From: an uncultured bacterium
GTDB lineage: Bacteria; AUK180
Assembly: GCA_937863565.1 (NCBI GenBank)
Contig: CALMGJ010000017.1
Location: 1-46,580, forward strand
DNA: 46,580 bases
Direction: 5' to 3'
The translations under genes and the position numbers were made by a program. The notes under the pieces are model-generated. The model did not search any database, was not told the DNA's origin, and worked only from the letters and a program-made list of their open reading frames with translations. The first letter of the stretch is position 1. Every line of letters starts with the position of its first letter. This document shows, piece after piece, positions 7,393 to 36,896 of this stretch.

Positions 7393-7408
7393 TGGCACAA
7401 ATCTTGTA
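7393..7408 (+). promoter_or_regulatory. Putative sigma54 (-24/-12) promoter
   Basis: TGGCAC-AAATC-TTGTA versus consensus TGGCAC-N5-TTGCW (GT instead of GC at -12); 31 nt upstream of ATG 7440, SD GGAGG at 7427-7431. Confidence 0.5.
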
Positions 7409-7439
7409 TAACTTAATGAAAATTATGGAGGTATTGAGT

Positions 7440-14270: not shown

Positions 14271-14321
14271 CCTTGCTCTCTTTGAGCGGCTCTTTTTAAA
14301 AAAATGTGGAGGTATTTTGAT

Positions 14322-19261: not shown

Positions 19262-19262
19262 A

Positions 19263-20228: not shown

Positions 20229-20703
20229 GATATTCTCCGACAGGAAAGCATTTTTAAGTACACTGAAAAAAATAAAAAAAACGCGCCGGCGGATCGTATT
20301 CACCAACGGCTGTTTCGACATAGTTCATCTGGGGCATCTTCATTATCTCAAGACCGCCGCAAGGATGGGAGATCTTTTGATCATAGGGTTAAATACCGAT
20401 ATGTCGATAAAAAGGCTGAAAGGCCGCGGGCGGCCGGTGAACAGTTTCGAATACAGGTCTCTTTTTCTTTCATACCTTGACTTCGTAGATTACATCATCG
20501 GGTTCGAAGAAGATACTCCGATTGAACTCATTGGCACCGTGCTTCCCGATATCCTCGTGAAAGGAGGTGATTACAGGAAAACAGATATCGTGGGATATCG
20601 AGAGGTTAAGGACAACGGCGGACGTGTTGTGACAATACCTTTCGAGTATGAAGTGAGCACGTCCGGGCTTATAAAAAAACTCAAAGGGAAGGCCTGCCGA
20701 TGA
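20218..20703 (+). CDS. rfaE2: D-glycero-beta-D-manno-heptose 1-phosphate adenylyltransferase (RfaE domain II)
   Basis: VFTNGCFDIVHLGH, GLNTDMSIKRLKGRGRP, KGGDY, STS; start moved to ATG 20218. Confidence 0.93.
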   Translation: MTRKIFSDRKAFLSTLKKIKKTRRRIVFTNGCFDIVHLGHLHYLKTAARMGDLLIIGLNTDMSIKRLKGRGRPVNSFEYRSLFLSYLDFVDYIIGFEEDTPIELIGTVLPDILVKGGDYRKTDIVGYREVKDNGGRVVTIPFEYEVSTSGLIKKLKGKACR

Positions 20704-21410
20704 AATGTGCGGTTTTCATCCCGGTCAGATACGGCTCTACGCGTTTTCCAGGCAAACCTCTGGCGGATATCAACGGGAAAAGCATGGTGAGAAGGGTCTG
20801 GGAGAACGCCAGTTCTGCAAAGAGCATCGACCGCGTATGCGTTCTGACCGACAATGAAGAGATCGTAAAAGAGTGCCAAATGTTCGGCGCGGAAGTTCTA
20901 ATGACCCCAGGGACAGTTAGAAGCGGAACAGAGCGGATAGCGTCGGTGATCGGCCGTTTCGGGGAATACGATATGATATTCAATATGCAGGGGGATGAAC
21001 CCCTTTTTAAAGGCGCCGATCTGGATTCACTTCTGAATAGATACCCTGCCGATGAAAAGACCGTATGCGGAACATACTGTTATCCGTTAGACCCTTCTTC
21101 GGCGGCGGACCCGAATAAGGTCAAGGTAGTGGCGAATGCTGCAGGAGAAGCGCTTTACTTCTCGCGAAGTCCGATCCCTACCGGCGGCCCCTTTCTAAAA
21201 CATATAGGCGTATACCTTTTCCGCAGGGAATTCATAAAAACATATATCGGTCTTCCTGCCGGCAAACTCGAGATCTCGGAAAACCTTGAACAGCTGCGCA
21301 TACTCGAGCACGGATATAAGATCTGCCTGAAAAGGACCGAGAGCGATACCGTTGCCGTAGATACGCAAGAAGACCTGGAAAAAGTGAGGATGATCCTGAA
21401 TGAAAAGTAA
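20700..21410 (+). CDS. kdsB: 3-deoxy-manno-octulosonate cytidylyltransferase
   Basis: IPVRYGSTRFPGKPLA, SGTERI, NMQGDEP, ALYFSRSPIP, HIGVY, LEQLRILE. Confidence 0.96.
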   Translation: MKCAVFIPVRYGSTRFPGKPLADINGKSMVRRVWENASSAKSIDRVCVLTDNEEIVKECQMFGAEVLMTPGTVRSGTERIASVIGRFGEYDMIFNMQGDEPLFKGADLDSLLNRYPADEKTVCGTYCYPLDPSSAADPNKVKVVANAAGEALYFSRSPIPTGGPFLKHIGVYLFRREFIKTYIGLPAGKLEISENLEQLRILEHGYKICLKRTESDTVAVDTQEDLEKVRMILNEK

Positions 21411-22188
21411 AAAGAAGAAACTCGTTGTGATAGCCGGCCCGTGCGTTCTTGAAGGGCTGAAGGAAACGGAGAGAATCGCAGAAACACTTATGGAAATCAC
21501 CGAAGGATTGCCGGTAGACCTTTATTTCAAGGCATCATTCGATAAAGCCAATCGGACATCCGGAGCTTCATATCGCGGACCGGGAATAAAAAAGGGAATA
21601 GAAATGCTCCGGAAAATTAAAAGTAAATACGGGATCAAGACAACTACGGATATCCACCTTCCCGAACAAGCCGATATGGTGAGGGACGCCGTGGACATGA
21701 TCCAGATCCCGGCTTTTCTGTGCCGGCAGACCGATCTTCTGATCGCTGCGGGAAAAACAAAAAGGAGCGTGAACGTTAAAAAGGGGCAATTCCTCTCTCC
21801 GGCGGAGACCAAGAATATCATCGAAAAGTTAAAGCATACTCCGGCCTCCGGGATCATGATAACGGAACGGGGCACGACATTCGGCTATAACCGTTTAGTC
21901 GTGGATATGACGGGCATTCCCGTTATGAGGTCATTTGGGGTCCCTGTGATAATCGACGCTACCCATTCCGTTCAGCAGCCGGGAGGAGGAGGAACGAAAA
22001 CGACAGGGAACAGGGACTTCGCACCTGTTATCGCCCGTGCAGGCATTGCCGCGGGCGCAGACGGCATTTTCATGGAAGTACACCCGCAGCCGGACCGGTC
22101 GCCTTCCGATGCCGCGAATATTGTTTCTTTAAGGGAATTTCCGAAAATATTGAAGATATTGCTGGAAATTTTCCGTCTTTTAGATTAA
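21400..22188 (+). CDS. kdsA: KDO 8-phosphate synthase
   Basis: IAGPCVLE, KASFDKANRTS, QIPAFLCRQTDL, KKGQFLSP, ERGTTFGY, DATHSVQ. Confidence 0.97.
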   Translation: MKSKKKKLVVIAGPCVLEGLKETERIAETLMEITEGLPVDLYFKASFDKANRTSGASYRGPGIKKGIEMLRKIKSKYGIKTTTDIHLPEQADMVRDAVDMIQIPAFLCRQTDLLIAAGKTKRSVNVKKGQFLSPAETKNIIEKLKHTPASGIMITERGTTFGYNRLVVDMTGIPVMRSFGVPVIIDATHSVQQPGGGGTKTTGNRDFAPVIARAGIAAGADGIFMEVHPQPDRSPSDAANIVSLREFPKILKILLEIFRLLD

Positions 22189-22954: not shown

Positions 22955-23683
22955 CTACTGCTTCATTAGAAAGGTGAGTATTTCCCCCGTTCCGGCGGTC
23001 AATTCATATAAAAGAAAGATCTTAAGGTCGCCGTTGCCGATAGCATCCAATTCTATCTCTGCATCCTTTGAATAAGCGTTAATGTCCTCAGATATTTCTG
23101 CAAGGTGATCGGTACCTGTGAACTTCACACGTTCTTTTATCGTTTCCGTATCTCCGGAAAGGGCATTCTTGAGTTCGGTTATCGCGGCATATCTGCTTCC
23201 GAAACGTGCCAGCGCATTGGCATCCGGAATGCTCAAGTTCCCTAAAAGACCGAGCAGATAAAGATGGAATGAATATCTGATCCCAAGGTCCGCCTCAATC
23301 GACGAGAGGTATTCCCCGAGTCCGGAGAATCTCTTTTTTCTTGAAGGGGACATCGAAGAGATGAAAGTCAGGTATTTTTTATACGCGTTGAATATAAGCG
23401 GATTTGCGAACCCGAATGAACTCATCCTTGCATTCACATGCTCAAACAGGCACAGAGCGTCTCTGGCAGGAAGTCTTTTCGAGGAGAGGAGAGTGCCCTC
23501 AATGAGAAAGATCCCTTTTATATCTTCCAGTACGCGGTCTTCTATAGAAATATCCAAAGAAGCGAATCTTGATAATAGAGAGAAAAAATCGGTATTCCTC
23601 TCCGTTACAGCGTATACTTCGGCCTCAAATCTGGAAAGGACCTTCAATACCCCTGCGGACAGCCCGAATCCCGAGAGGTTCAT
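22955..23683 (-). CDS. Hypothetical protein (242 aa)
   Basis: ATGA-coupled to the upstream CsgG-like gene; no motif recognised. Confidence 0.7.
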   Translation of the reverse strand: MNLSGFGLSAGVLKVLSRFEAEVYAVTERNTDFFSLLSRFASLDISIEDRVLEDIKGIFLIEGTLLSSKRLPARDALCLFEHVNARMSSFGFANPLIFNAYKKYLTFISSMSPSRKKRFSGLGEYLSSIEADLGIRYSFHLYLLGLLGNLSIPDANALARFGSRYAAITELKNALSGDTETIKERVKFTGTDHLAEISEDINAYSKDAEIELDAIGNGDLKIFLLYELTAGTGEILTFLMKQ

Positions 23684-24684
23684 CTGTCCTGAAGCTGCTT
23701 TATGACCTCTTCGCGTTTTCTCTTAAGGTTCTGAAGTTCCGTTTTCTTTGCGATGGCATTTGAATCGCTGCCCAATTGGAGCGCCTGATCGATATATGCG
23801 ATAGCCCCGTCATAATCGGCCAATGCCTGGTATGCGATCGCGAGATTGTAAAGGGCCGCTTTCTGATCGTTCAGCACTCCTTTCTCCGCTATATCCTCCC
23901 AGATAGGGATCGCATTGTCCCAGAGCCCGCCCCGGGCAAATTTGAAGGCATCTTTCATTCGCAGGTCCTTTCCTTTACTAATGAGCCGCTCACCCTTGTA
24001 AATTGTATGGGGCGCTATCTGGTTCACGAATTCCTTTACGATATTATTGATGATGCCCGCGAGCATCGATTTGGCTTCGGGAAGGGCGCTGATCGCCTCA
24101 CCTTTCGTTTTCCTCGCAACATTGCGCTGAACCTCGGGAGCATAGTTCTTGGAAACCATTATCTCGCCTGTAGCGACATTAATGATCTTGACGGTCATTT
24201 CGAGGCGGACTTTCCTGAACGCTTTGAACACCTTCTCCATATAATATTCTTTAGTTTTGCTGTTGTATCTTTTCTCTTCGACCTCCTCGCCGAAATCTCT
24301 GGAAGAGTAGTCGGAGATATGTCCGGTTATAATGGCATTGGCGCCGAGGAGCTGGCCGATCTGCTGCGAAGCGCTCTCTTCCGTAAGACCCGTTACCGAA
24401 AGCTGATGTTCGGACGTGATCGTTTTGAGTTGCGCTCTTTCTATCACCTTGAAGAAACCGTTGTCCAAAAGAGCCTGAGAGAGGGCATTGCTCACGTCAT
24501 CGGCAGGGGATCCGAGATAGGTCCTCACGGCAGTGAAATCTGCCACCGCTATCGCTTTCACTCCGGGAAGAGGATGCTGTGCGGGCTCAAGCATCTTGAT
24601 CGAGATCATGCCTCCGCCGCAGGACAGGAACATGAGCATGACAGAAACGAAAAAAAGTGCAAGGAAGATCTTTTTTGTTTTCAT
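23680..24684 (-). CDS. CsgG/HfaB-like lipoprotein with a C-terminal TPR
   Basis: Lipobox FLSC; IAVADF, FKVIERAQLKTITSEHQL, IGQLLGANAIITG, KIINVATGEI; TPR ALYNLAIAYQALADYDGAIAYIDQAL. Confidence 0.8.
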   Translation of the reverse strand: MKTKKIFLALFFVSVMLMFLSCGGGMISIKMLEPAQHPLPGVKAIAVADFTAVRTYLGSPADDVSNALSQALLDNGFFKVIERAQLKTITSEHQLSVTGLTEESASQQIGQLLGANAIITGHISDYSSRDFGEEVEEKRYNSKTKEYYMEKVFKAFRKVRLEMTVKIINVATGEIMVSKNYAPEVQRNVARKTKGEAISALPEAKSMLAGIINNIVKEFVNQIAPHTIYKGERLISKGKDLRMKDAFKFARGGLWDNAIPIWEDIAEKGVLNDQKAALYNLAIAYQALADYDGAIAYIDQALQLGSDSNAIAKKTELQNLKRKREEVIKQLQDR

Positions 24685-24793: not shown

Positions 24794-24822
24794 TTGACAA
24801 AAAAGGCGTTTTTTAATATAAT
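24794..24822 (+). promoter_or_regulatory. Perfect consensus sigma70 promoter
   Basis: TTGACA-17 bp-TATAAT; SD AAGGAG 24833-24838; ATG 24845. Confidence 0.85.
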
Positions 24823-24844
24823 TTACATAAATAAGGAGTATTCT

Positions 24845-26317
24845 ATGCGTTCACAAAGGGTTCTATTTCTGGCGGCTTTGATGCTTCTAGGGGCCGCCGT
24901 TTTCTGCTCCACCGAAAAACCCGTGATCGTTCAAGGCGTCCAAAACATATCAGTCGAGGACTACAAGTACGATAGCGGAGAATCGGTCATCCTGAAATTC
25001 TCTCTTTCTCCGGATGACACATTAAGCCAGGGCAATCCCGTGAAGTATTATCGGATACTTATAAAGAGGGGATGGCTTGAAGAGGATGAGAAGATAAACC
25101 CGGATGATTTCAGGGAGATCCAGAATATCACATCCACGGCTATCGCAAAGTCCAGGCTCAGCGAAGCGCTGCGGAAGGATAAAAGCGTGAAGGAAAAATT
25201 CAGATATCCATTTCTCGATGATGTGAACGGCGAAAAGAGGACATATTGCCTCAGGCTTAAAAACCTGAAGCAGTTCTTTCTGAACCCTATCGAGAACAAT
25301 ATCGCGTATTACAGATACATTGTCGATGAATACAAGGTCGCAACAGACATCAGCAAGGAAGAGAAAAAATCCGAGATCAAAAAGATCTGGGCCGAGATCA
25401 TTAAAATGAACAAGGAATTGAAAACGCTCAGGAAAGAGCTCAATAAAGATCTCAAACTCACCGTTACCGTTGTTGCCGAATCCGCCGAGGGGATTAAAAC
25501 CTTCTCTCATCTGTACCAAACCTTCGAACCCAAGGTCGAAGCGGTGAACTTAGATAAACTGAGTGTTTTCATAGTTTCCATTGCCTTCGTTATACTCCTT
25601 CTTATAATTTACCAGATGACGAAGATGGGCAAGGAATTCTATGTGAGGCCAATCGCAGGACTTTCGGCCGTTGAAGAAGCAGTCGGCCGCGCTACGGAAA
25701 TGGGAAGGCCCGTGCTGTATATCGGCGGTCTGAGCGGCATTTCGGATATCGCCACGCTGGCCTCGATCAATATACTCGGCCAGATCGCCAAGAAAGTGGC
25801 TATTTACGAAACACCCCTGATCGTTCCCGCCTATGATCCGATCGTATACTCGGTGATGCGGGAAGTGGTAAGAGAAGCATACATTGATGTAGGGAAACCC
25901 GAAGCTTTCCAGGAAGAGAACATCTTCTACCTTACCAGCGAACAATTCGCGTATGCCGCCGGTGTGAACGGCATCATGGTAAGGGAAAGACCGGCAACGA
26001 TCTTCCATATGGGAATGTTCTTTGCCGAATCGCTTCTTATGTCCGAAACCGGGAATCAGGTAGGCGCCATACAGATAGCCGGAACGGACGCCGTTACGCA
26101 GATACCGTTCTTCATAACCTCCTGCGACTATACGCTGATCGGAGAGGAGCTTTATGCCGCAAGCGCATACCTGTCCAAGGAACCCCTTCTGCTTTCAACG
26201 CTCAAGGCCCAGGATTACGGAAAACTCGCAATAATGGTGGGGATCATCCTCGGCATCGTTCTTGAGCTTCTGGGAGTAACATTATTGACCCAGATACTTC
26301 AGAACATACCGGAGTAG
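24845..26317 (+). CDS. DUF6754-domain membrane protein with an exported N-terminal FN3-like/coiled-coil region
   Basis: N-terminal signal; one TM helix then YVRPIAGLSAVEEAVGRATEMGRPV, QFAYAAG, FFAESL, IQIAGT, QIPFFITSCDYTLIGEELYAASAYLS. Confidence 0.8.
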   Translation: MRSQRVLFLAALMLLGAAVFCSTEKPVIVQGVQNISVEDYKYDSGESVILKFSLSPDDTLSQGNPVKYYRILIKRGWLEEDEKINPDDFREIQNITSTAIAKSRLSEALRKDKSVKEKFRYPFLDDVNGEKRTYCLRLKNLKQFFLNPIENNIAYYRYIVDEYKVATDISKEEKKSEIKKIWAEIIKMNKELKTLRKELNKDLKLTVTVVAESAEGIKTFSHLYQTFEPKVEAVNLDKLSVFIVSIAFVILLLIIYQMTKMGKEFYVRPIAGLSAVEEAVGRATEMGRPVLYIGGLSGISDIATLASINILGQIAKKVAIYETPLIVPAYDPIVYSVMREVVREAYIDVGKPEAFQEENIFYLTSEQFAYAAGVNGIMVRERPATIFHMGMFFAESLLMSETGNQVGAIQIAGTDAVTQIPFFITSCDYTLIGEELYAASAYLSKEPLLLSTLKAQDYGKLAIMVGIILGIVLELLGVTLLTQILQNIPE

Positions 26318-26326
26318 GAGATTACA

Positions 26327-27043
26327 ATGAAAAGATCAGTACCGCTCGCCATAGTCCTTGTGACAGGCATCATATATTTCTTCGTGCCCTTCATGACCAA
26401 CCGCTTCACGATGGATTTCCTGTACCAGACGATCCTTGTGGATTGGATGAAGATCATGGGCGTTTTCGCCATCGTGATGTCCATCACCTCTCTTGTGAGA
26501 AGGAATGTGTACAAGATCCAGAGAAAGGTCGGCGATTACCAGTATTCCTGGGTAGAACTGATAGGGATGGCCTTCATGATAACCGTCTCGATCTTTCTTC
26601 CCCAGACCCCGCTCGGCAAGAACATGCTCCTGGGCGGGATACGCGAAGGATCGGTATATGACTGGGTATTCTCGAACATCCAGGTTCCAATGCAGGCGAC
26701 GATGTTCTCGCTTCTCGCGTTCTACATCGCCTCGGCCGCCTACCGCTCTTTCAGGGCGCGCAATGCGGAGGCGACGCTTCTTCTCATCACGGCCGGTATA
26801 GTGATGATCGGAAGGGTACCCCTCGGAGAGGATATATATAATTTCATGAAGGGATTGAACGGGGACGCATCCTTCAGGTGGTCGGAAATATTCAATTTCC
26901 AGGGCATCACCCAGTTCATACTCGATATCCCGAACGCCGCGACAAAAAGGGCCATCGGCTTCGGCGTCGTCATGGGCATGATCGCCACCTCCCTCAAGAT
27001 CATGTTCGGGATCGAAAAATCCTGGCTCGGCGGCACGGAGTAG
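26327..27043 (+). CDS. Conserved hypothetical multi-pass membrane protein (DUF6754 cluster)
   Basis: About 5-6 TM helices; ATMFSLLAFYIASAAYRSFRARN.EATLLL, IGRVPLG, PNAATKRAI..G, GIEKSWLGG; SD AGGAG. Confidence 0.8.
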   Translation: MKRSVPLAIVLVTGIIYFFVPFMTNRFTMDFLYQTILVDWMKIMGVFAIVMSITSLVRRNVYKIQRKVGDYQYSWVELIGMAFMITVSIFLPQTPLGKNMLLGGIREGSVYDWVFSNIQVPMQATMFSLLAFYIASAAYRSFRARNAEATLLLITAGIVMIGRVPLGEDIYNFMKGLNGDASFRWSEIFNFQGITQFILDIPNAATKRAIGFGVVMGMIATSLKIMFGIEKSWLGGTE

Positions 27044-27052
27044 GGGGTATAT

Positions 27053-28120
27053 ATGAATTTTTTCAAATGGCTTTCCAATATTGACAGGCGCTGGATATAC
27101 CTTCTGATGGCCGTGGTGATCTCGATACCTATTTTTATCAGAGCTCCTGTAAAGGTCAAACCGAGCCCGGATGTCACGATGCTGTACGATTATCTTGAGA
27201 ACCAGGAGGAAGGCATGGGCGTGCTCCTGTCCTTCGATTATTCGCCTGACTCTCTCGCGGAACTCCAGCCGATGGCAAAAGCGCTTTCTTATCATGCACT
27301 GAGCAAGAATCTCAGGCTCATGGGCATTGCGCTTTCATGGCCTTCCGCCGCGGGCCTCGGGATCGAAGCGATAAAATCCCAAGTGGATATCATCAACTCC
27401 GAAGTACTGAAGGACCTTCTTGACAGCGCTGAACAGAACGAGGAAGTGAAGACCTATGCAGCTGAGAAGAAACTTGCGTCGGAAGGATTACGCAAAGAGA
27501 TCCTGTATGTTCTCATTGCCAAACTTGAAAAGGACAAGGAGATAGAGGAAAGGTATTCCGAACTCAAAGGAGTCCTCGAGAAGGCAAGGATATCATCGGA
27601 GATAGTTACATATGAGAAAGAAGTGAGGCTTATCGGAAGGGATTGGTGTTATTTCGGGTACAAACCCGGATATACGCAGATGATACTGGGTATGGGCACC
27701 GATATCGCTACGACCTTGAGCACGGACTATAAAGGGACTTCTCTTCTCAAATATGAGATGTTCAATTCTCCTACCGAAAAAATGAAGAATTACGATAATA
27801 TCGCCGTTTGTATAGACCTTGCCGCAGGCGGCTCCCTCGGTTCCTGGCTGGCCTTTGTGAATACGAAATTCGGCCGGCCGGTAGCGACCGGGGTCACTGC
27901 CGTCATGGCGGCGGATTATTATCCGTATCTGCAGTCAAAACAGATCATAGGACTTCTCAACGGGATGAGAGGCGCCGCAGATTATGAAACGCTCATAGGG
28001 AAACCCGGCCGCGGGCTTTCGGGTATGAGCTCCCAGTCCGCAGCGCATATACTTATCATCATATTCATCATCCTGGGAAATATCGGATACTTCCTCGGCA
28101 AGAAAGGAGGTGAGAAATGA
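27053..28120 (+). CDS. Conserved hypothetical membrane protein with N- and C-terminal TM anchors and a soluble alpha/beta domain (DUF6754 cluster)
   Basis: IDRRWIYL, SFDYSP...ELQPMA, FGYKPG, GVTAVMAADYYPYLQSKQIIGLLNGMRGAADYE, QSAAHILII..IILGNI. Confidence 0.8.
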   Translation: MNFFKWLSNIDRRWIYLLMAVVISIPIFIRAPVKVKPSPDVTMLYDYLENQEEGMGVLLSFDYSPDSLAELQPMAKALSYHALSKNLRLMGIALSWPSAAGLGIEAIKSQVDIINSEVLKDLLDSAEQNEEVKTYAAEKKLASEGLRKEILYVLIAKLEKDKEIEERYSELKGVLEKARISSEIVTYEKEVRLIGRDWCYFGYKPGYTQMILGMGTDIATTLSTDYKGTSLLKYEMFNSPTEKMKNYDNIAVCIDLAAGGSLGSWLAFVNTKFGRPVATGVTAVMAADYYPYLQSKQIIGLLNGMRGAADYETLIGKPGRGLSGMSSQSAAHILIIIFIILGNIGYFLGKKGGEK

Positions 28121-28749
28121 GCGTAATGAACTTCATTGGAACAACACTTGCGGCGATATTCACACTTGCGGTATTCTCCTTCCTTTACAAGGACAATCCA
28201 TTCTACAAATTCGCGGAACATCTTCTCGTCGGGCTCAGCGTCGGTTATTATGTCGGTCAGATCTGGCATACGGCGTTCATATCCTGGATCATAAATCCCG
28301 TGTTCAATGAAAGGCAGTATATCCTTTTCATCCCCATATTCTTCGGACTTTTCTATCTCGGTTTCATACATTCCAAGACCGTTTGGCTGATAAGGATACC
28401 TATAGCGCTTTCGCTCGGCATAGGCAGCGGGTACGGCATCTCGTACTCGTTCCAGACATCGATATTCATCCAGCTAAGGGAGACGATAAACGTGTTCACT
28501 CAGTCCGGCATGGACGCATGGGACGTTATCAAAGCGATACTTCTTGTCGTCGGCGTTTTTTCCGCGATCGTCTATTTCTTCTTCTCGTGGAAACACGAAG
28601 GGGTTGTAGGCTGGATCGCGAAAGTGGGCATATATTTTCTTATGATAGGTTTCGGCGCATCGTTCGGCCTGACGGTCATGGGAAGAATATCCCTGCTCAT
28701 CGGCCGCTTCCTTTTCCTTTTCCAGGACTGGCTGCATATCATTAAATAG
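28117..28749 (+). CDS. Conserved hypothetical multi-pass membrane protein (DUF6754 cluster)
   Basis: TLAVFSFLYKDNPFYKFAEHLLVGLSVGY, YFFFS, FLMIGFGASFGLTVMGRISLLIGR; ATGA coupling and SD AGGAGGTG. Confidence 0.8.
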   Translation: MSVMNFIGTTLAAIFTLAVFSFLYKDNPFYKFAEHLLVGLSVGYYVGQIWHTAFISWIINPVFNERQYILFIPIFFGLFYLGFIHSKTVWLIRIPIALSLGIGSGYGISYSFQTSIFIQLRETINVFTQSGMDAWDVIKAILLVVGVFSAIVYFFFSWKHEGVVGWIAKVGIYFLMIGFGASFGLTVMGRISLLIGRFLFLFQDWLHIIK

Positions 28750-28758
28750 AACGGTTAA

Positions 28759-28790
28759 GCGCGGGAGACCGTCTCCCGCGCATATTTTCT
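28759..28790 (+). terminator. Strong hairpin terminator between convergent operons
   Basis: GCGCGGGAGA-CCG-TCTCCCGCGC followed by ATATTTTCT. Confidence 0.75.
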
Positions 28791-28815
28791 TTGTTTTCTG
28801 AGATCAGTGAACCGG

Positions 28816-31800
28816 TTAACGGAATTTAGTTTTTATCAAAGAGGCAAGAGCGTAATATCTCGGGAACTTGAATTTTTCCTTCATAGCGGCCGCTGCCGCG
28901 CCCAGATCAGAACCATTCCTTATAAGTAAGCGTATCAGAATACTGTAAAAATTCATATCATCCCATGGACAGAAGATGAAAAGAGAATTCTCGTTGGAAT
29001 AAAAGGAGGGAATGACATCGTAACCCACGGCGGCAGGCTCTATGCCCGAAATAACGAGCATGGCAAGATCGGCCGCCTTTCTGAACGGGACTCCGGGATA
29101 GGATGAGAGGAAAGGCTCAATACCGTTGAAAAAACCCCTCTTCAGAACGGCCATGCCGGAAGCCCCGAAATGACCGGCCAGGTCGGTGAGGTACGGCGCG
29201 TCTTCCGAGAAAAAATACGGACCATTGTCTTCAACGGCCTTTCTCTTCAGGGAGAACGGGACCGAGTAAAGCCCGATCTTGCGGTCCTCAAAAATACTGA
29301 AAGGGAAAAGAGCCGTTCTCCGATCCGGAATAAGGGTGATATCCTTCTCGGGGATATCCGAGAAGAACAGATCGGAAAAATAACCTTTTGCGTGATCGAA
29401 CTCCGTGAACCCTGCGATATCGGAGAACAAAGAATGGAAATTCAATGCGTATTCCTCCGCGTCAAAAGCCCTTGATGTCATCGATATCCTGCCGTTTTTT
29501 ATGCGGAAAGTGAAGATCAAACCGTCCAAAAGGACTATTTGGCACGCATTGAACGAATATTGCTCCAGTGCCTCTTCGACCTCTTCCCTGGAATACCTTT
29601 CCTTCAGAATATCGGAATAGTACCCCGTAAGCGCCTCGGCCGGATTCGCGCTGAGGAAATATTTTTTCAAGATGCCTTCCTTGGAAAAGGTGAGACCGTT
29701 TTTTATGATGTCGAGGGAAGCGATATTCCCCAGTTTTAAAAATTCTTCGAAGAGGTTCTCCGTCAATTCAGGTTCGGATGAGGAAAGATCGTTGAGAAGT
29801 TCAACGCGGAGCACACCCGAGATGTTCTTTCCGAGAAGTTCGCGAAGGGCCGCTGTGGCCTTTTCGGGTTTCTCTGCCTTTGCTTTTCTATACTGTGCGA
29901 AATAATAATAATCCTCGTAGTCATATGTCCGTGCCATCTCTTCGAGTATTTTGATCTCGTCCGAAGCTTTAATTCCCAACCTGCTCTTGCAAACGGCGAT
30001 CAGCCTCAGATCGTAGAGGATATTGGCGACATTGTCTGTCTTCACATCCTTCTGATAGATCTCGGAGGCTATCGAAAGAGCTTTTCTATATTCGTTCCCC
30101 GCCATAAAAAGGAGGCATTGATTGGCTCTTATATCGAGAATAGATCCCTCCTGCTTTGATTTAATTGCATATTCCAGGGCTTTCTTAAAGCAATTTCCGG
30201 AACTATCAAGATTATTCAATTCAAATTCTATAAGTCCGAGGAGATTGTATCCCGCGGTAATATCGGAGATCTCCCTGCTTTTAATAAGGCTTTCTGCAAT
30301 GTTCCTCGCTTTTAAAAGATCGCGCCTTTTTAGGCATGCCACGCCGAGTATTGCCGAAGCCCTTTCCGCATCGATAAATTCGCTATACTTCTCGATAAGC
30401 CCGCCTATCTCGTAATTCCCGCATTCGATATTGTTGCGGAGGTATTCGAGGAAGTAGGGGCCTATGTTCTCTCCTTTCAGCTTTTCAAGATCGAGCCGAA
30501 TGCCCTCTTCAAAAAGATTCAGCGAGCCTAAGGGGTCCTTCTTGAAAAGATAAAGGTAGTGCGCGTAATTCAAAATGATCCTGCTCATATGCATGGTATC
30601 CGAACCGCTATTGTATTCCCTGTACAATTCGGAAGAAAGATCGAACGCTTTCTTTAACATTCCATTCGAAGCGTAAACATCGATCTGACTGAGCTGTATA
30701 GGAATAAGATATCCCGTGTCCCCCGCGAATTTCTCCTGCATGATCTTCGCTGTCGCCAAAGCCTTCTCGGTGTCGCCCATGGCATTGTGTATTGCGATCA
30801 GATTGCTGAGGAGCCTGTAAAGATCATCCTTGTGCGTTTCGGGATCAATGATACCGTCCAGCACTTTGTTGATATAATAAACGGCAATCTCATAATCGCG
30901 GGTCATATAAAGTGCGCGGATGAAATAATTGAATATCTTCATCTTTTGGGCATCTTCAAGGGGATCTCCGTAAATATTGATCAGATTATTGAAATAGATC
31001 GCGGCAAGCTGCCATTTTTTGCCCTTGTATGCATCAATGGCCAGATCAAGATAGTATTGGAATTTTGAATTGATGAAGAACGGGATCTCTTCCTTTTTCA
31101 ATCCCCTGAAACCGAAGAATAAGGAATCCGGCGATGAGAGGACATCGAATTTATTTTCTCCTTTCATGCGCTCCGGGGGGATGTCGGAAAAACCTGAAAA
31201 AGTGGATATGCCCGAAAAGGTCAAAAGAGGCACAAGAAGTTCCGTGATACTGTAATCGGGGAGTTCCCGCAGGAACAAGTGATAGGGCGTCTGCCTCTCG
31301 CCGAGAAGCGCTTTTACAAAAAGCGGCCCTATCCTGAGGTCATTCACATTGCTGCCTTCTATATATGCGTTGATGATCCCCCAACCGCCGAGCTTCGCCG
31401 TGTTTTCATCAACGTTCAGGACCATTTCGGGATTATAGTTGAAATTCACGAGAGAGTAGTAAAGAAAGTTCAGAGAAGTGGAATTGGCCATACCGGGCAC
31501 GAATTTAGTATTATAGGACACGGCATAATCATATTTCAACCCGCCCGTATCTGTTATTCCGAGCATTTCATAACCGTCCCAGAGCACAAAGATATTAGCC
31601 GCCCAGTCGCAGAATAAGATCCTTTTACCTTCGAAAGACCCCAGCATCTCCTTTATGTCCCTTGTGAAAACGCGGATGAAAAAATTGACATAGGAAGCGG
31701 GATTCTGCTTGAGCTCCTCGTCGATCTCGAGAAGCAGCCTGTCCTTGTCCGTGTCACGCCGGAAGAGCTTCTCTTTTAGGAAACGCGCATTTTTAAAAAA

Positions 31801-34800
31801 GATATTATCCAGCTCACCCGAGAAGACGATATCCTCTTCGGATACGGAATTGAAAAATTCGAGAGAGCGGCACTGTTCCTTTAAGCGCACGAAACCCAAA
31901 AAATCCCCTTCCCTGTATAGGTCTTGCGCCTTCCGGTTCAGAAGGTTTACCGCTGCCGGCATCAGAGAACCCGGTATTTTCTCGAAAGTGTTCAGAAGGG
32001 AATCCACTGCTTTCACATTATTCCCGGCAAGCATTTGAAAGTACCAGATCAGTCCGCAGCGCGGAAAGTTCTCCACAGTACGCAGGGCGTCTTCAAGATA
32101 AGGTCTTCCATCTCCGCCCCCTATGCCTGCAAGAAAATATTTCGTTAAAAAAAGCAGCGCTCTCGTTTTAAAATGAGCATCTTTATTCCTTTCTAAAAAA
32201 TCATCAATGAGATGTTCCAATTGGATAAGGTTCCCGTAGATCTTTTCGAATTCGTCCAGATTCTTCTCCAGGTCCAGCGAAACGGAGAATTCCTTAAGGC
32301 CTTGCGTCTCGAGAAGGGCGCGCTGGAAAAGAGAGAGTCCCACGCCTTCCGTTAAAGCATTGCCGCTTTTAACGATCTTCACATAATCGGAAAATGGGAT
32401 GATCTCCCTGAAATCTCTCCGAGCGAAATTCCCGGAATAGATATTTACGAGATTCGCAAGTCTGCCTCTGTTCGACTTGATATCCTCGAGTATGGACATG
32501 CTGTCGGTAAAACGCTTTACCGCTTCATCGATCTTCTTCTCGCGAAGGCTGTTCAATCCGAAATGGTTCAACACAATGGCGCTTTCCTCGCTTTTCTTCT
32601 CTTTCTTGGAAAGGAACGCCATGCGCGCACCTAGATAACGGTTTGCATCCGCATACCTTCCGAGTTTCGAGTACACCATGATAAGGCCGTTATATATCTC
32701 TTTTCTTATGGCGGTAGGAGGGTCCTTCATATAGTCGGCTTTTTTCACGCCGAACGGATTAATGAAGGCTTCGAAATCAAAAAGACCTTTACGGTCGAAT
32801 TTATATGTCTTAAGCTCATCGAGAGCTTTCAGAAAATACTCCTCGGCGCTTTTATTGTCATTGAGTTCAAGGCAGATATTCGCGTACAATTTATATTCCA
32901 TTGTGAAGTTGGCGCCCAGCTGTTTTTCCTTTTCGCCTATAAGCGACATGACATTGACAAGGGCGTCATTATATCTTCCGTTAATGTAGTTCAGGAATGA
33001 AAGGTACCGGAGTATGCGTATGCGGTAACGCAGATCCTCTCCGTACTTCATTGCCTTCTGAAGTACATCCACTGCTTCCCTGTACTTTTTATTGATATTG
33101 TAAGTTCTGGCAAGGATCAGGGAGTCGTTCACCGCCTGTTCAGCATTGAAGAAGAACCCGAACTGCTGAAAACGCATTGAGAGATAATAATCTAAGTTCT
33201 CGTAATCCTCAAGCGAGTAAAAACATTTTCCGAGATATGAAAGTATCAGAGCATTGATGTATATGGTATCATTGGAACTCAGATTGAGCGCTTTCAAAAG
33301 ACTGTCCTTCGCTTTTTCGAAATTACCGCTCATGAAATAGTATATGCCCGTTACGGCGAGCAGATATGGTTCCTCCCACTTACCCAGAGCCCCTCTCATC
33401 CTCAAAGAAGGTATCTTTTTCTCGAGGAAAAAATCACACATAGTCCTCTTGTAGAGATACATATCGTCGTTTTTCCCCAGATTCTTCGCTATGATCGAAA
33501 GCTTATCGCGGGCATTCTCTTTCAAGTAGAAAAAATACCAGAATATCATCCGCGGTTCGTTCGGATAGAACGTATACAGCCGTTCAATAATGTTCATGTC
33601 CTTTTCACGGAAAATACTTTCCACATTAAGAAGCTTCATGATCTCGCTTTTTATCCCGGGAGCTTCCCGGTCGGCCTTTTTCAATGTTCTCGCGATAACC
33701 TCGGTATCGCGGTCATCTACTGCGATCTTTATCTTCAAAAGCTGAGCCTCGGGTTTTTCATTGTCCTTTATCAGTTCAAATGCGTTCTTATTGAGGCCGA
33801 GTCGGTTCAGCATCTCGGCTTTTAAAAGAAGCGCATCTTCGTCGTTGCGGATCCTCTCCAGGAAATAGAGCTTTTCCCAAAGGCTTATCAGATCAGAGCT
33901 GAACGCTTCATCCAGAAGGCCGATGAAACGCCCTTTATCCTCTTTTCCAGCCGCCGCGAAGAACGAATCCCAGAGATCGAGGATCTCACGGATATCGCCG
34001 AATTTGGAATAAACGGAAGAGATATTGATCTGAGCCGAATTAAGAACGGGCCTGTTCCGCGCACGGTCCCTAACGGCCCTGAAAACAGCCAGAGCATCTT
34101 CATAGCGTTTGCCGCTAAAAAGATATGATCCCCAGAGAAGATCGATGCTGTCCCTGAATTTCGGTGCCAAAGCAAGATATTCCCCGTATTTCTCTTCATT
34201 AAGGCTTCCTTTCATATAATCGGTAAGAAGAAAGAAATAATTTTTCAACTGCGGGTCTACACGGTCGGCCGTCAGTTCTAAGTAATACCCGGCCTTCGTA
34301 TAGTCTCTTTTCCTCAGATAAAGAACGAACAGGTCTTTCTCGATATTGATATTGCTGCCTTTCAAAGCCAGGAAGCGCTCCAGAGCAAATATCTCTTCGT
34401 CCGTCCCGCTGAAACGGTAATCGCCGATATCCGCTTCATCTGTAAAGAGGGGGGCTGCGCCGTCCATGCTGAATTTTACAATATCGAAATTCTTATCCCG
34501 TTTCGCAGCAATAAGATCACTTCCGCTCACGTTCAAAGTAACAACGGGAGAATTATCGTAGAACAATGGAAGCTTGGTTCCATTCATGATCATATAAACG
34601 CGGTTATCCGCTTCGCAGAAGAACAGCCGGTCATTGAGCATCACGGGATAGAAAACGTCCGTATCGTTCTTATGAACAATTTTTATTTCTCCTGAACGGA
34701 ACATGTAATGAAACACCTCATTCCCGCAGGAGAACAATATGCCGCCGGAATATTTGAAAGGATATCGTCCGTCAGCTATCTTTTTTTTTTCTTTTTTTCT

Positions 34801-35229
34801 TGTGGAATAGAGTATCAATTGATTATTGGAAGAGTAGCAGACATTATCCTTGTCAATAAAGCACGCCCCCTCAAAAGAGCGGCCTCTTTCTATGATGATG
34901 TTTTTTGATCTTTTCACATCGTATTTCTTAAGCGAACCCCTTGAATCTTCTTTATTGGAGATCCAGAGGATATCATCCTCATCAGGACTTACATCAAAAC
35001 CGTCCGCAAGAACGAACTCGTCCATGATCACCGAAAGTTCGCCGCGGACCGTTCTTTTCATTATAGAGATCCTGTCCTTCTGGTATTTAATGAAATAAAG
35101 ATCACCGTTTCTTATCACCGGGAATATCTCATTACCCGTGTAATTGGTTATCTTGTTTAGCGCCGATATGTGACTTGTCAAGAAAAAAAGAAAAAATAAG
35201 AGCGTGGCCCTTCGGATCATTTTTCGCAT
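28816..35229 (-). CDS. Giant exported protein (2137 aa): N-terminal TolB-like propeller, long TPR arrays, degenerate CHAT-like C-terminus
   Basis: Signal-like N-terminus; FDVSPDEDDILWISN propeller pattern; many TPR helices (YFMSGNFEKAKDSLLKAL, YNLLGLIEFELNNLDSSGNCFKKAL); C-terminal ITLIPD...FPFSIF and PRYYA. Confidence 0.75.
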   Translation of the reverse strand: MRKMIRRATLLFFLFFLTSHISALNKITNYTGNEIFPVIRNGDLYFIKYQKDRISIMKRTVRGELSVIMDEFVLADGFDVSPDEDDILWISNKEDSRGSLKKYDVKRSKNIIIERGRSFEGACFIDKDNVCYSSNNQLILYSTRKKEKKKIADGRYPFKYSGGILFSCGNEVFHYMFRSGEIKIVHKNDTDVFYPVMLNDRLFFCEADNRVYMIMNGTKLPLFYDNSPVVTLNVSGSDLIAAKRDKNFDIVKFSMDGAAPLFTDEADIGDYRFSGTDEEIFALERFLALKGSNINIEKDLFVLYLRKRDYTKAGYYLELTADRVDPQLKNYFFLLTDYMKGSLNEEKYGEYLALAPKFRDSIDLLWGSYLFSGKRYEDALAVFRAVRDRARNRPVLNSAQINISSVYSKFGDIREILDLWDSFFAAAGKEDKGRFIGLLDEAFSSDLISLWEKLYFLERIRNDEDALLLKAEMLNRLGLNKNAFELIKDNEKPEAQLLKIKIAVDDRDTEVIARTLKKADREAPGIKSEIMKLLNVESIFREKDMNIIERLYTFYPNEPRMIFWYFFYLKENARDKLSIIAKNLGKNDDMYLYKRTMCDFFLEKKIPSLRMRGALGKWEEPYLLAVTGIYYFMSGNFEKAKDSLLKALNLSSNDTIYINALILSYLGKCFYSLEDYENLDYYLSMRFQQFGFFFNAEQAVNDSLILARTYNINKKYREAVDVLQKAMKYGEDLRYRIRILRYLSFLNYINGRYNDALVNVMSLIGEKEKQLGANFTMEYKLYANICLELNDNKSAEEYFLKALDELKTYKFDRKGLFDFEAFINPFGVKKADYMKDPPTAIRKEIYNGLIMVYSKLGRYADANRYLGARMAFLSKKEKKSEESAIVLNHFGLNSLREKKIDEAVKRFTDSMSILEDIKSNRGRLANLVNIYSGNFARRDFREIIPFSDYVKIVKSGNALTEGVGLSLFQRALLETQGLKEFSVSLDLEKNLDEFEKIYGNLIQLEHLIDDFLERNKDAHFKTRALLFLTKYFLAGIGGGDGRPYLEDALRTVENFPRCGLIWYFQMLAGNNVKAVDSLLNTFEKIPGSLMPAAVNLLNRKAQDLYREGDFLGFVRLKEQCRSLEFFNSVSEEDIVFSGELDNIFFKNARFLKEKLFRRDTDKDRLLLEIDEELKQNPASYVNFFIRVFTRDIKEMLGSFEGKRILFCDWAANIFVLWDGYEMLGITDTGGLKYDYAVSYNTKFVPGMANSTSLNFLYYSLVNFNYNPEMVLNVDENTAKLGGWGIINAYIEGSNVNDLRIGPLFVKALLGERQTPYHLFLRELPDYSITELLVPLLTFSGISTFSGFSDIPPERMKGENKFDVLSSPDSLFFGFRGLKKEEIPFFINSKFQYYLDLAIDAYKGKKWQLAAIYFNNLINIYGDPLEDAQKMKIFNYFIRALYMTRDYEIAVYYINKVLDGIIDPETHKDDLYRLLSNLIAIHNAMGDTEKALATAKIMQEKFAGDTGYLIPIQLSQIDVYASNGMLKKAFDLSSELYREYNSGSDTMHMSRIILNYAHYLYLFKKDPLGSLNLFEEGIRLDLEKLKGENIGPYFLEYLRNNIECGNYEIGGLIEKYSEFIDAERASAILGVACLKRRDLLKARNIAESLIKSREISDITAGYNLLGLIEFELNNLDSSGNCFKKALEYAIKSKQEGSILDIRANQCLLFMAGNEYRKALSIASEIYQKDVKTDNVANILYDLRLIAVCKSRLGIKASDEIKILEEMARTYDYEDYYYFAQYRKAKAEKPEKATAALRELLGKNISGVLRVELLNDLSSSEPELTENLFEEFLKLGNIASLDIIKNGLTFSKEGILKKYFLSANPAEALTGYYSDILKERYSREEVEEALEQYSFNACQIVLLDGLIFTFRIKNGRISMTSRAFDAEEYALNFHSLFSDIAGFTEFDHAKGYFSDLFFSDIPEKDITLIPDRRTALFPFSIFEDRKIGLYSVPFSLKRKAVEDNGPYFFSEDAPYLTDLAGHFGASGMAVLKRGFFNGIEPFLSSYPGVPFRKAADLAMLVISGIEPAAVGYDVIPSFYSNENSLFIFCPWDDMNFYSILIRLLIRNGSDLGAAAAAMKEKFKFPRYYALASLIKTKFR

Positions 35230-36896
35230 ATGAGACCGTCCAGGACCAGAATATCCATATGCGTTTTTACAAAAGTTTCAACCGCGTCCTTCGGGGAACA
35301 AACGATAGGTTCTCCCCTGAGATTGAAAGAAGTATTGATAATGACGGGAACGCCGGTGATCTTCCCGAATTCGCTCACAATGCGGTATATTTTCGGATTT
35401 TCCCTCTCATTAACTGTTTGGACACGGCCCGTATTATCCACATGGATGCCCGCCTTGAAAGAATCCTTTTCCGGCATTACGGGAAGACAGAGGATCATGA
35501 AAGGCGAAGTTGTTCCCGTTGAACCGAAAAAGGATTCGAAATCCTCTTCACGGACAACCGGCGCAAAAGGTCTGAAACTCTCCCGGTGTTTGACTTTCTC
35601 GTTGAGGATGTCCTTCATGGCAGGGTCTCTCGAATCGGTCAGTATCGACCTCCCGCCAAGCGCTCTTTGACCCATCTCCATCCGTCCTTCAAACCAGCCG
35701 ACGATCTTGCCCTGCGCGAGCTTAGATGCAATATAGGCCTCGGTATCATCAACCGTCCGGAAGCTCAATCCTGCCTCGGTCAGAGCTTTCTCGGATACCT
35801 CTTTGCTGTATGACGGACCCCAGAAAAGATTGGTGAGTTTTTCAAAGCCGGTCTGTTTACCGGCATTCTTGGTTAAAAAGGCGTAAAGAAATGCGGCACA
35901 ACCCACAGCCGCCCCGCCGTCCCCGCCTATCGGAAGAAAGAAATATTCGTCGAAAATGCCGCTTTTAAGAAGCTTTCCGTTCATTACGGAATTAAGGACC
36001 ACCCCTCCGCCGTAGCAAACCCGGGAACTACCTGTGATCTCCTTCGCATGGGCGCTTATCTTCAGGGCTATCTCTTCGAGAAACCACTGAAGAGTTGCCG
36101 CGAGATCCTCATCCCTTTTCGTAATAGGGCCCTCAGGTATGCGTGGCTCTCCGAACAAGCGGATCATCTCCTTTGAATACATCCGCTTCGAGTGCTCATA
36201 AGCGAAATACTTCCTGTTCAACTTGAAACTTCCGTCATCGAATATCCTGAGGAGACGGGAGAACTCCTGTTTCATCGCGGGTTTGCCGTAGGAAGCAAGC
36301 CCCATCACCTTTCCTTCACCGCTGTTCACTTTGAAACCCAGAAAAGCGGTTATCGCCGAATATAAAAGGCCCAGCGAATCTGGAAAATCCATTACTTTGA
36401 GGATCTCGATATCATTGCCGTTTCCCTTTGAAATGGAGAGAGTGTTCCATTCTCCAACGCCGTCGAAAGTGATCACGGCGCTTTGTGTAAATCCTGAAAG
36501 GAAAAATGCCGCTGCGGCATGCGAAAGGTGATGACTAACGAAATACGGGATTTTACCGAGTTTTCTTTTAATAAAATACTTTATATGGAGCTTTGATCTG
36601 ACCCAGGAGGGGATAACTTGATGAAATGTTCCGTATCCGAGAGGAAAATTACGTATATAAGTATCCAGTATACGGTCGAATTTAAGGAAAGGTTTCTCAT
36701 AAAAGACGATATGATCGATATCGCCGGAGCTGATCTTTCTGAACTTTAAGCAAAAATCGATAGCCTGCTCCGGCCATCCGTGATCATGCTTAATCCGGGA
36801 AAACCGTTCTTCGGCGGCCGCGGCAACGATCTTGCCATTCTCGAGAAGACAGGCGGAAGAATCATGATAAAAGGCCGAGATGCCGAGTATGATCAT
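35217..36896 (-). CDS. Carbamoyltransferase (NodU/CmcH family)
   Basis: ILGISAFYHDSSACL, AEERFSRIKH, HHLSHAA, DGVGE, GEGKVMGLASYG, RALGGRSIL, KHRESFRPFAP, NTSFNLRGEPIV. Confidence 0.95.
   Translation of the reverse strand: MIILGISAFYHDSSACLLENGKIVAAAAEERFSRIKHDHGWPEQAIDFCLKFRKISSGDIDHIVFYEKPFLKFDRILDTYIRNFPLGYGTFHQVIPSWVRSKLHIKYFIKRKLGKIPYFVSHHLSHAAAAFFLSGFTQSAVITFDGVGEWNTLSISKGNGNDIEILKVMDFPDSLGLLYSAITAFLGFKVNSGEGKVMGLASYGKPAMKQEFSRLLRIFDDGSFKLNRKYFAYEHSKRMYSKEMIRLFGEPRIPEGPITKRDEDLAATLQWFLEEIALKISAHAKEITGSSRVCYGGGVVLNSVMNGKLLKSGIFDEYFFLPIGGDGGAAVGCAAFLYAFLTKNAGKQTGFEKLTNLFWGPSYSKEVSEKALTEAGLSFRTVDDTEAYIASKLAQGKIVGWFEGRMEMGQRALGGRSILTDSRDPAMKDILNEKVKHRESFRPFAPVVREEDFESFFGSTGTTSPFMILCLPVMPEKDSFKAGIHVDNTGRVQTVNERENPKIYRIVSEFGKITGVPVIINTSFNLRGEPIVCSPKDAVETFVKTHMDILVLDGLICEK

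Follow-up and report, generated by a model that had tools for sequence, protein, structure and literature searches.

A co-inherited operon of four membrane proteins, one of them carrying DUF6754, in uncultured bacteria

Organization of the operon

The contig CALMGJ010000017.1 of an uncultured bacterium (GTDB lineage AUK180, assembly GCA_937863565.1), analysed over 46,580 nucleotides (nt) and referred to below as the window, contains one copy each of four consecutive genes in the same orientation, g1, g2, g3 and g4. Their coordinates, with those of the associated signals, domains and adjacent genes, are given in Table 1. A sigma-70-type promoter precedes g1, a purine-rich GGAG-type stretch precedes each of the four start codons, and a hairpin terminator follows g4. 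As the genes to either side are encoded on the opposite strand, the four-gene unit is self-contained, in agreement with the initial annotation, which had recognized the perfect promoter, the tight spacing with Shine-Dalgarno sequences and the terminator. The genes g1-g2-g3-g4 are one co-inherited and translationally coupled unit of four membrane proteins.

Table 1. Coordinates of the operon, of its signals and domains, and of the adjacent genes in the window
Feature	Position	Strand	Basis and remarks
Sigma-70-type promoter TTGACA-17 nt-TATAAT	24794..24822	+	12/12 match, sequence read
Shine-Dalgarno sequence AAGGAG	24833..24838	+	7 nt before the g1 start codon, sequence read
g1, 490 amino acids (aa)	24845..26317	+	Open reading frame (ORF) list; ATG at 24845
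g1 extracytoplasmic N-terminal region, residues 22-235	24908..25549	+	Fibronectin type III (FN3)-like columns of the family profile; a charged insert of ~110 aa splits the region
g1 transmembrane (TM) helix 1, residues 236-260	25550..25624	+	Model helix 7-31, hydropathy; K/R-rich stretch next
g1 Rossmann-like core of DUF6754, residues 273-444	25661..26176	+	AlphaFold2 model; predicted cytoplasmic
g1 C-terminal TM helix, residues ~457-485	26213..26299	+	Hydropathy, model helix 218-246, alignment; preceded by conserved Q456-D457-x-x-K460
g2, 238 aa	26327..27043	+	ORF list; 9-nt gap after g1
g3, 355 aa	27053..28120	+	ORF list; 9-nt gap after g2
Charged insert in the g3 ectodomain, residues 113-192 (~80 aa)	27389..27628	+	42% K/R/E/D; lineage-specific
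g4, 210 aa	28117..28749	+	ORF list; 4-nt ATGA overlap with the g3 stop
Intrinsic terminator	28759..28791	+	10-bp stem (8 GC), 3-nt loop, T-rich tail; hairpin proper 28759-28781; between convergent genes
Lipoprotein-like gene	23680..24684	-	DUF6340/CsgG/LpoB matches, C-terminal tetratricopeptide repeats (TPR); divergent from the operon, common 160-bp intergenic region
242-aa ORF, no family	22955..23683	-	4-nt overlap with the lipoprotein-like gene
2137-aa TPR-rich protein	28816..35229	-	Converges on the operon terminator
Carbamoyltransferase gene	35217..36896	-	Upstream of the 2137-aa TPR gene, same strand; its end overlaps the start of that gene by 13 nt

The exact promoter sequence occurs only once in the window, and 100 shuffles that preserved the dinucleotide composition did not produce it; less stringent promoter-like sites are about as frequent as expected (9 seen, 7.3 ± 2.6 expected). 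Between its two hexamers, the spacer contains an A6-GGCG-T6 inverted repeat (24800-24816, plus strand), which may be an operator or may merely reflect the AT-rich composition of the spacer. The ATG that lies downstream of the promoter and 7 nt past AAGGAG was taken as the start codon of g1, as the alternative ORF of 514 aa would start upstream of the promoter. The operon terminator is the strongest of the 5 terminator-like sites in the window, a number that is not above chance (5.4 ± 2.5 expected).

Hydropathy analysis indicated about six hydrophobic segments in both g2 and g4, which are therefore polytopic, and showed that g1 and g3 consist of soluble domains held between TM anchors, as initially described from their sequences. 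A motif scan of all four proteins detected no Walker A, CxxCH, CxxC, CxxCxxC or hhhhD[DE] motif, confirming the reported lack of ATPase, heme and Fe-S signatures, and neither g2 nor g4 contains a single cysteine.

Distribution and co-inheritance of the four genes

The C-terminal region of g1 that contains DUF6754, hereafter g1c, was used to search for relatives. At least 8000 candidates were scored, all at E ≤ 1e-3, and a library clustered at 50% identity contained 2162 representatives at E ≤ 1e-3, 1595 at E ≤ 1e-10 and 774 at E ≤ 1e-30. In a collection with one genome per species, at least 609 stretches matched and at least 584 were confirmed; the best 80 of the at least 609 stretches gave the 79 loci on which all locus counts below are based. 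A tblastn search of 72,556 plasmids with g1c gave no match.

All 79 loci come from metagenome-assembled genomes (MAGs). They are labelled as Poribacteria (26 loci), WOR-3 (11), Cloacimonadota (10), Fermentibacterota-type (4), Stahlbacteria (3), Eisenbacteria-type (2), and Edwardsbacteria, Coatesbacteria, Planctomycetota, CSSED10-310 and Desulfuromonadaceae (1 each), with 18 loci unlabelled. The initial annotation had stated that motifs of these proteins recur together in diverse, poorly cultured bacteria and archaea. This holds for the bacteria; none of the 79 loci is archaeal, and a single ESM Atlas row, for a g4-like cluster, carries an archaeal label. The five motifs quoted at that time are all present in the operon and fall in conserved blocks, except GYKPG, which is only loosely conserved.

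Profiles of g1 to g4 were then mapped onto all ORFs of the 79 loci. The complete set, in the order g1-g2-g3-g4, was found in 68 of them. In five further loci, a contig edge truncates the module, the genes up to the edge being in the same order, and six contain g1 alone, one of which (L044) has just ~250 nt downstream. Nine loci carry two tandem modules, and 14 carry a complete module with an extra g1, the pattern in Cloacimonadota being g1-g2-g3-g4-g1'. In the tandem loci L004, L005, L011, L021 and L065, and likewise in L039 and L079, all four genes of a module have their best matches in the same module elsewhere, and the paralogues within a locus are only 35-63% identical; the pattern is less clear in L001 and L027. 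These cognate best matches across loci indicate that whole modules were duplicated and have been kept as cognate sets. Since many genomes carry extra copies of g1, we infer that g1 is an exchangeable subunit and that g2, g3 and g4 form the conserved core.

We consider it very probable that the four proteins form a genuine, co-functional membrane complex of an undescribed kind. Four co-inherited membrane subunits without an assigned function are a rare case. The present ones are spread over at least 584 species-level genomes and, when clustered at 50% identity, over about 2,000 clusters.

Structure of the DUF6754 domain

The g1 protein comprises, in this order, an N-terminal hydrophobic signal-like segment, a variable FN3-like ectodomain with a charged insert, a TM helix, the DUF6754 domain and a C-terminal TM helix. 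The N-terminus (..AAVFC) has no canonical lipobox, and the segment is therefore only called signal-like. Residues 231-485 match DUF6754 (PF20539) with 374.5 bits (E 2.7e-112; gathering score 27 bits) over model positions 2-256 of 257, and the domain was C-terminal in all 56 long relatives scanned. Among the four subunits, only g1 matches this Pfam family, so that the name of DUF6754 operon, under which the locus was first described, is justified by g1 and does not extend to g2, g3 and g4. DUF6754 is a family with no described function or structure; a literature search found no paper on DUF6754 or PF20539, also with a broader set of terms.

A structure of g1c was predicted with AlphaFold2. A first model based on 22 sequences was poor (pLDDT 53.9) and was superseded by a model built on 150 representative sequences (m02c6d019f0c0), which is confident (pLDDT 94.9, pTM 0.88). 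It consists of a TM helix, six parallel beta-alpha units (residues ~273-444) and a long helix that runs into the C-terminal TM segment, and it bears out the alpha/beta nature initially attributed to the soluble domain of g1.

Across the 150 sequences, each from a different cluster, g1c is 47-64% identical between phyla. Being about half identical at such distances, the domain shows a degree of conservation that usually marks a core machine. Twenty alignment columns are invariant, including R282, T284, E285, G295, R380, G390, E395, E401, Q410, Q419, D428, G433, E435 and D457, and C427 is nearly so. Read from sequence positions against the secondary structure rather than from coordinates, most of the invariant residues are located where strands 1, 4, 5 and 6 end on their C-terminal side, or shortly beyond, or where the first helix ends. 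In Rossmann-like domains, this is usually the site of the ligand crevice. A dinucleotide-type loop is not apparent, as only one Gly after strand 1 is invariant in the 150 sequences, which leaves no GxGxxG motif, and the Asp after strand 2 is conserved in fewer than 90% of them. Nucleotide binding by g1c is thus not indicated by motif; it is nevertheless possible.

Foldseek searches with the g1c model gave no match at E ≤ 0.001 in PDB (350,542 chains) or BFVD. The best matches, all weak, are generic Rossmann-like ligand binders, namely the molybdenum cofactor (Moco) carrier protein, the MthK RCK domain, MurQ (SIS), eIF2B-alpha and the NAD domains of dehydrogenases.

The g2, g3 and g4 proteins

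Orthologue alignments showed that g2, g3 and g4 are conserved at ~40-50% identity and have distinctive features. The g2 protein has six TM segments, an Arg-rich loop (SAAYR(S/A)FRAR) predicted to be cytoplasmic, a GxxxG motif within TM6, and GIE(K/R)xWLGG as a conserved C-terminal sequence. The g3 protein has a TM segment with its N-terminus predicted to be inside, a putative extracytoplasmic domain, and a C-terminal TM segment with conserved His and Asn followed by a K/R tail. The ~80-aa charged insert of g3 in the window is missing from all 28 aligned orthologues, and only the closest relatives (343-368 aa) have such an insert; the g3 proteins of Cloacimonadota have a different one, of ~120 aa. 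In g4, about six TM segments are found together with the conserved blocks LYKDNPFY(K/R)FAEH, YFFFSxEHKG and GFGASFGxTVMxRISLLIGR. Lineage-specific loop expansions also occur in g2 and g4.

None of these three proteins was assigned to a family in Pfam, NCBIfam, PADLOC, PHROGs or the PDB sequence profiles, and NCBIfam, PADLOC and PHROGs had no family for g1 either. The NCBIfam search of g1 to g4 returned a single row, at 17 bits against a cut-off of 52. A permissive Pfam scan (E ≤ 1) of 29 members each of g2, g3 and g4 gave nothing consistent, with scattered, noise-like matches to hydrophobic families, and none of the 120 relatives of g3 among the matches listed had a Pfam domain. In the ESM Atlas, g2 and g4 fell into unnamed clusters only (Atlas models with pTM 0.48 and 0.51). 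If families were defined for the three subunits that have no family model, thousands of proteins now called "hypothetical" could be annotated in groups such as Poribacteria, WOR-3, Cloacimonadota, Fermentibacterota, Eisenbacteria and Planctomycetota.

The initial annotation had also described a complex of 2+2 subunits. This is appropriate as an architecture, and a pseudo-symmetry is not supported, as hhalign detected no homology between g2 and g4 (probability 1.5%) or between g1c and g3 (1.4%).

Membrane topology and variable periplasmic regions

The topology of the four proteins was predicted by the positive-inside rule from the K+R counts of 47-150 sequences per protein. For g1, the 15 residues after TM1 contain on average 3.0 K+R, compared to 1.3 in those before it (150 sequences), which suggests a cytoplasmic DUF6754 and an N-terminal region outside the cytoplasm, in agreement with the signal-like N-terminus. 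The N- and C-terminal tails of g3 are both rich in K+R (3.5 and 3.7, respectively), suggesting a central domain on the outside and both termini on the inside. The positive N-tail and loops 2 and 4 of g2 suggest an N-in/C-in protein with six TM segments, and the positive loops 1, 3 and 5 of g4 suggest an N-out orientation. From these sequence biases, the Rossmann-like domain would be cytoplasmic, and the g3 domain, the g1 N-terminal region and loop 4 of g4 would be periplasmic.

Independent support for the topology of g4 comes from its longer relatives, 93 of which were found among 3381 candidates and which carry inserts in loop 4 (position read from six sequences). HHH_3-type helix-hairpin-helix (HhH) domains were detected in 14 of the 93, several of which also match PsbU or T2SSK, and EF-hands in two. 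These inserts, which in some relatives of 370-650 aa (P0394, P0400, P0430 and P0463-P0476) are EF-hand, HhH/ComEA-, PsbU- or T2SSK-type domains or long sequences without a family, are informative since the HHH_3/ComEA, PsbU and T2SSK families consist of extracytoplasmic proteins. One g4 relative has an N-terminal, signal-anchored extension ahead of TM1.

The g1 ectodomain is similarly variable, its length ranging from ~40 to more than 1000 residues across the family. FN3 is found in many close relatives, several of which are named "fibronectin type III domain-containing protein", and the FN3-like columns of the g1 family profile match FN3/titin in the PDB by sequence-profile search, the only PDB matches that such searches gave for any of the four proteins, whereas Pfam detected nothing significant in residues 22-235 of the g1 protein of the window. 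Among 56 long representatives, nine have a PQQ_2/BamB-like beta-propeller, one has fn3 and 46 have no Pfam match in this region. Unusually long variants of g2, g3 and g4, as well as g1 N-terminal regions, contained no Pfam domain beyond weak fn3 matches. The parts predicted to be periplasmic vary (FN3, beta-propeller, coiled coil, HhH, EF-hand), while the domain predicted to be cytoplasmic stays constant.

Comparison with known systems

The operon was compared to the systems that it most resembles. The LOG/Moco carrier proteins (PDB 2iz5, 6y01) share with g1c a parallel-sheet alpha/beta structure and bind a nucleotide-type ligand at the C-termini of the strands. The top Foldseek match is 2iz5, but the similarity to this type of domain is weak (E 4e-3, TMq 0.34, TMt 0.48-0.50, 12-14% identity). 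Neither Pfam (Lysine_decarbox) nor a sequence comparison gave a match, and g1c differs in being clamped by two TM helices and in having its own invariant motifs, GRATEMG and CDYTxIGEE. The RCK/KTN domains (MthK, Trk/Ktr) are cytoplasmic and Rossmann-like, with acidic ligand sites and a tie to a membrane pathway, as is predicted for g1c, and RCK chains of MthK rank high among its fold matches (TMq 0.30-0.33, root-mean-square deviation ~5 Å). Yet g1c gave no TrkA_N/RCK match in Pfam, has a single invariant Gly after strand 1 and reached only TMq ~0.32 with E ~8e-3; it is anchored at both ends, whereas RCK forms a free ring, and neither g2 nor g4 was matched to TrkH, KtrB or any family of channels. 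RCK domains are also usually far less conserved than g1c.

Multi-subunit secondary and ECF-type transporters resemble the operon in architecture only. In TRAP DctQMP, TTT TctABC and CbiMNQ, two different polytopic subunits are combined with one whose extracytoplasmic part is flanked by a TM helix on each side (CbiN-like), and the S-components of ECF transporters are exchangeable subunits on a common core. No match to DctM, DctQ, TctA, CbiM or CbiQ was obtained, though. Pfam and NCBIfam detected no ABC or EcfT/CbiQ protein among g1 to g4, and the operon has no ATPase gene. No DctM/DctQ or TctA/TctB match was found by Pfam at E ≤ 1 in 29 members each of g2, g3 and g4, and a DctM row in the Atlas had a TM-score of 0.24. 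The Rnf and Nqr complexes had no Pfam match in the operon either, and the proteins have no Cys motifs and no homology between g2 and g4.

At the level tested (Pfam, NCBIfam, PADLOC, PHROGs and PDB profiles, and Foldseek for g1c), the system matched none of the known transporters, motors, receptors and enzyme complexes, in line with the initial annotation, and nothing in print was found that names it.

Proposed function

As a working proposal, which we put forward tentatively, the complex may translocate something across or into the envelope and would then be a transporter, taken broadly. In this proposal, an acidic crevice of the cytoplasmic g1 domain binds a cation or a small ligand of phosphorylated or nucleotide type. 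The g1 domain, which is membrane-clamped on either side, probably docks on those cytoplasmic loops of g2 and g4 that are rich in Arg. Binding of the ligand would gate or drive a conformational change in the membrane core of 16 helices and thence in the periplasmic domains, with the net result that a substrate would be moved across or into the envelope. A bolder and improbable version is that the TM-clamped Rossmann-like domain is the engine of a new class of energy- or ligand-coupled translocators, in place of a P-loop ATPase or a classical ion-coupled carrier, and perhaps linked to NAD(H)/redox or to organic acids. Such a class would be common to hundreds of uncultured species of FCB, PVC and other groups, and its interchangeable g1 subunits would fit one core to different periplasmic partners. 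If the Rossmann-like domain does gate or drive translocation, this would be a new principle of membrane coupling, and the confident g1c model and the list of invariant residues make the gating idea directly testable.

Several observations weigh against translocation. The g1c fold has only a weak top match (E 4e-3, TM-scores 0.34/0.48), its strand-1 loop has one invariant Gly instead of a GxGxxG motif, and the Asp after strand 2 falls short of 90% conservation. Comparison of the two halves of g2 and of g4 revealed no internal or inverted repeats of the type found in many transporters, and their alignments contain no invariant mid-membrane acidic residue. The ESM Atlas rows for g2 and g4 show no named family above a TM-score of 0.5, and no neighbour or accessory gene is conserved across phyla among the flanking genes of the 79 loci. 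Finally, transporters of small molecules seldom have periplasmic decorations this large and variable, which would better fit envelope machines or receptors.

An envelope machine is the first of these alternatives. No small solute would cross the membrane in this case; a cytoplasmic event in the Rossmann-like domain would move the periplasmic domains of g3, g1 and g4, which would act on cell-wall, outer-membrane or surface structures by a logic like that of FtsEX/MacB-type or Tol/Ton-type systems. The invariant cytoplasmic domain and TM core, contrasting with lineage-variable periplasmic additions (FN3, BamB-like propellers in 9/56, coiled-coil inserts in g3, HhH in 14/93, EF-hands in 2/93), and the exchange of g1 paralogues on one core would suit such a machine. 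So would the nearby genes for a Wzi-like outer-membrane protein, downstream in three loci, and for a protein sorted by the type IX secretion system (T9SS) beside L047, as well as the lipopolysaccharide (LPS) genes, the CsgG/LpoB-like lipoprotein and the PorV-like outer-membrane protein in the window. On the other hand, the proteins have no ATPase or known motor motif, the neighbours are lineage-specific and include no conserved periplasmic partner enzyme, and the relatives labelled Firmicutes, with a g4-like cluster labelled Bathyarchaeota, would break any tie to an outer membrane, these MAG and Atlas labels being weak. We regard such a machine as unlikely on balance, while giving it serious consideration.

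The same variability would also be expected of a receptor complex in which g1 paralogues sense external cues through their ectodomains, the Rossmann-like domain is a new output or second-messenger-binding module, and g2, g3 and g4 are a scaffold. The presence of several g1 copies per core, with an invariant cytoplasmic domain, the relative proximity of g1c to ligand-binding or regulatory domains (RCK, LOG/Moco-carrier type), and the histidine kinases flanking L001, L071 and L079 and CheW flanking L045 are consistent with this. However, three more membrane subunits, conserved at ~40-50% identity and co-duplicated with g1, go far beyond the usual need for a scaffold, signalling domains are rarely as conserved as g1c with its 47-64% identity between phyla, and neither a known output domain nor a conserved regulator nearby was found. 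A sensory role thus appears rather improbable.

Flanking genes

The genes flanking the modules bear on two further readings of the complex. From 52 non-Poribacteria-like loci, 80 ORFs were collected and 67 of them scanned, the 13 others having been scanned before or being Rex-like ORFs checked by BLAST. In six of the 10 Cloacimonadota loci (L046, L048, L049, L053, L069 and L077; e.g. L048 14190-14819), a gene for a Rex-type redox-sensing repressor follows the extra g1 at a distance of 9-12 nt; when 1.15 Mb were scanned with a Rex operator consensus (≤ 2 mismatches), 8 sites were found, none of them upstream of a module. An NAD-dependent 2-hydroxyacid dehydrogenase is encoded 8-34 nt upstream in four Fermentibacterota-type loci, and a distant homologue 173-285 nt upstream in two Poribacteria. 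A lipoate-protein ligase gene lies downstream in six loci and a 4Fe-4S ferredoxin gene upstream in two, with an FAD oxidoreductase accompanying the ferredoxin. In eight of the 79 loci (L004, L005, L011, L021, L065, L002, L026 and L056; e.g. L005 4317-7324), a "MutL"-type ASKHA ATPase (PF13941, ~610 aa) is encoded directly upstream of g1 on the same strand, next to a protein of 375-402 aa with a sub-threshold biotinyl/lipoyl or RnfC_N barrel-sandwich match, except in L056, in which no lipoyl-type match was found. The ATPase, the barrel-sandwich-type protein and the lipoate-protein ligase may be accessory proteins of this lineage. In ~20 Poribacteria, aroK-aroB are upstream and a sugar-phosphate isomerase-like gene is downstream. 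Together, the neighbours lend the system a faint redox or organic-acid flavour, each link being confined to a single lineage.

These neighbours, found with redox or NAD connections in four lineages (Rex, the 2-hydroxyacid dehydrogenase, the ferredoxin with the FAD oxidoreductase, and the lipoate ligase), would agree with a membrane-bound enzyme. At the cytoplasmic face, its Rossmann-like domain would catalyse a reaction, perhaps one linked to redox or 2-oxo/2-hydroxy-acid metabolism, on a substrate that is embedded in the membrane or linked to a lipid, and the membrane subunits would hold or flip this substrate. The conservation of g1c, with 20 invariant residues that include R, T, E, D and Q at strand ends and a near-invariant Cys, is at the level of a catalytic site, and the weak biotinyl/lipoyl-type match beside the ATPase points in the same direction. 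Against this stand the missing dinucleotide-binding or cofactor motif, the lack of a fold match to any enzyme family at E ≤ 1e-3, the restriction of each neighbour link to one lineage, and the position of the lipoyl-type match below the Pfam cut-off and its absence from L056. We therefore attach a low probability to an enzymatic function.

The initial annotation had favoured an ATP-independent importer, coupled to ions and specific for peptides or amino acids, with an extracytoplasmic capture domain on g1. The two polytopic subunits, the lack of an ATPase motif and the extracytoplasmic domains had spoken for it. Yet the neighbours differ by lineage, and no peptidase or amino-acid catabolic gene recurs among the 67 flanking ORFs of the non-Poribacteria loci and the sets scanned earlier. 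The conserved domain of g1 is predicted to be cytoplasmic and Rossmann-like, its N-terminal part is FN3-like or a beta-propeller rather than a binding-protein fold, and no known transporter family was matched. Nor need the complex be independent of ATP, as the Rossmann-like domain could bind a nucleotide. An importer of this kind is thus very improbable. If a tethered periplasmic receiving domain exists in the complex, g3 would be a better candidate for it than g1, and no substrate-binding-protein match was found for g3 in Pfam or the PDB sequence profiles.

Other genes of the window lie farther from the operon. A run of sugar-nucleotide and LPS-core genes (18236-22188, plus strand) encodes a GalT-like protein, a PfkB kinase, two cytidylyltransferases, one of them KdsB-like, and a KdsA-like DAHP_synth_1 protein, which indicates a diderm organism that makes the LPS sugar Kdo. 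Further upstream, a 2278-aa protein (7404-14240, plus strand) contains a subtilase domain (Peptidase_S8) with a fervidolysin-like prodomain and is followed by a 303-aa beta-barrel protein (14304-15215, plus strand) with a weak match to PorV of the T9SS. The two may constitute a giant secreted protease and its outer-membrane partner.

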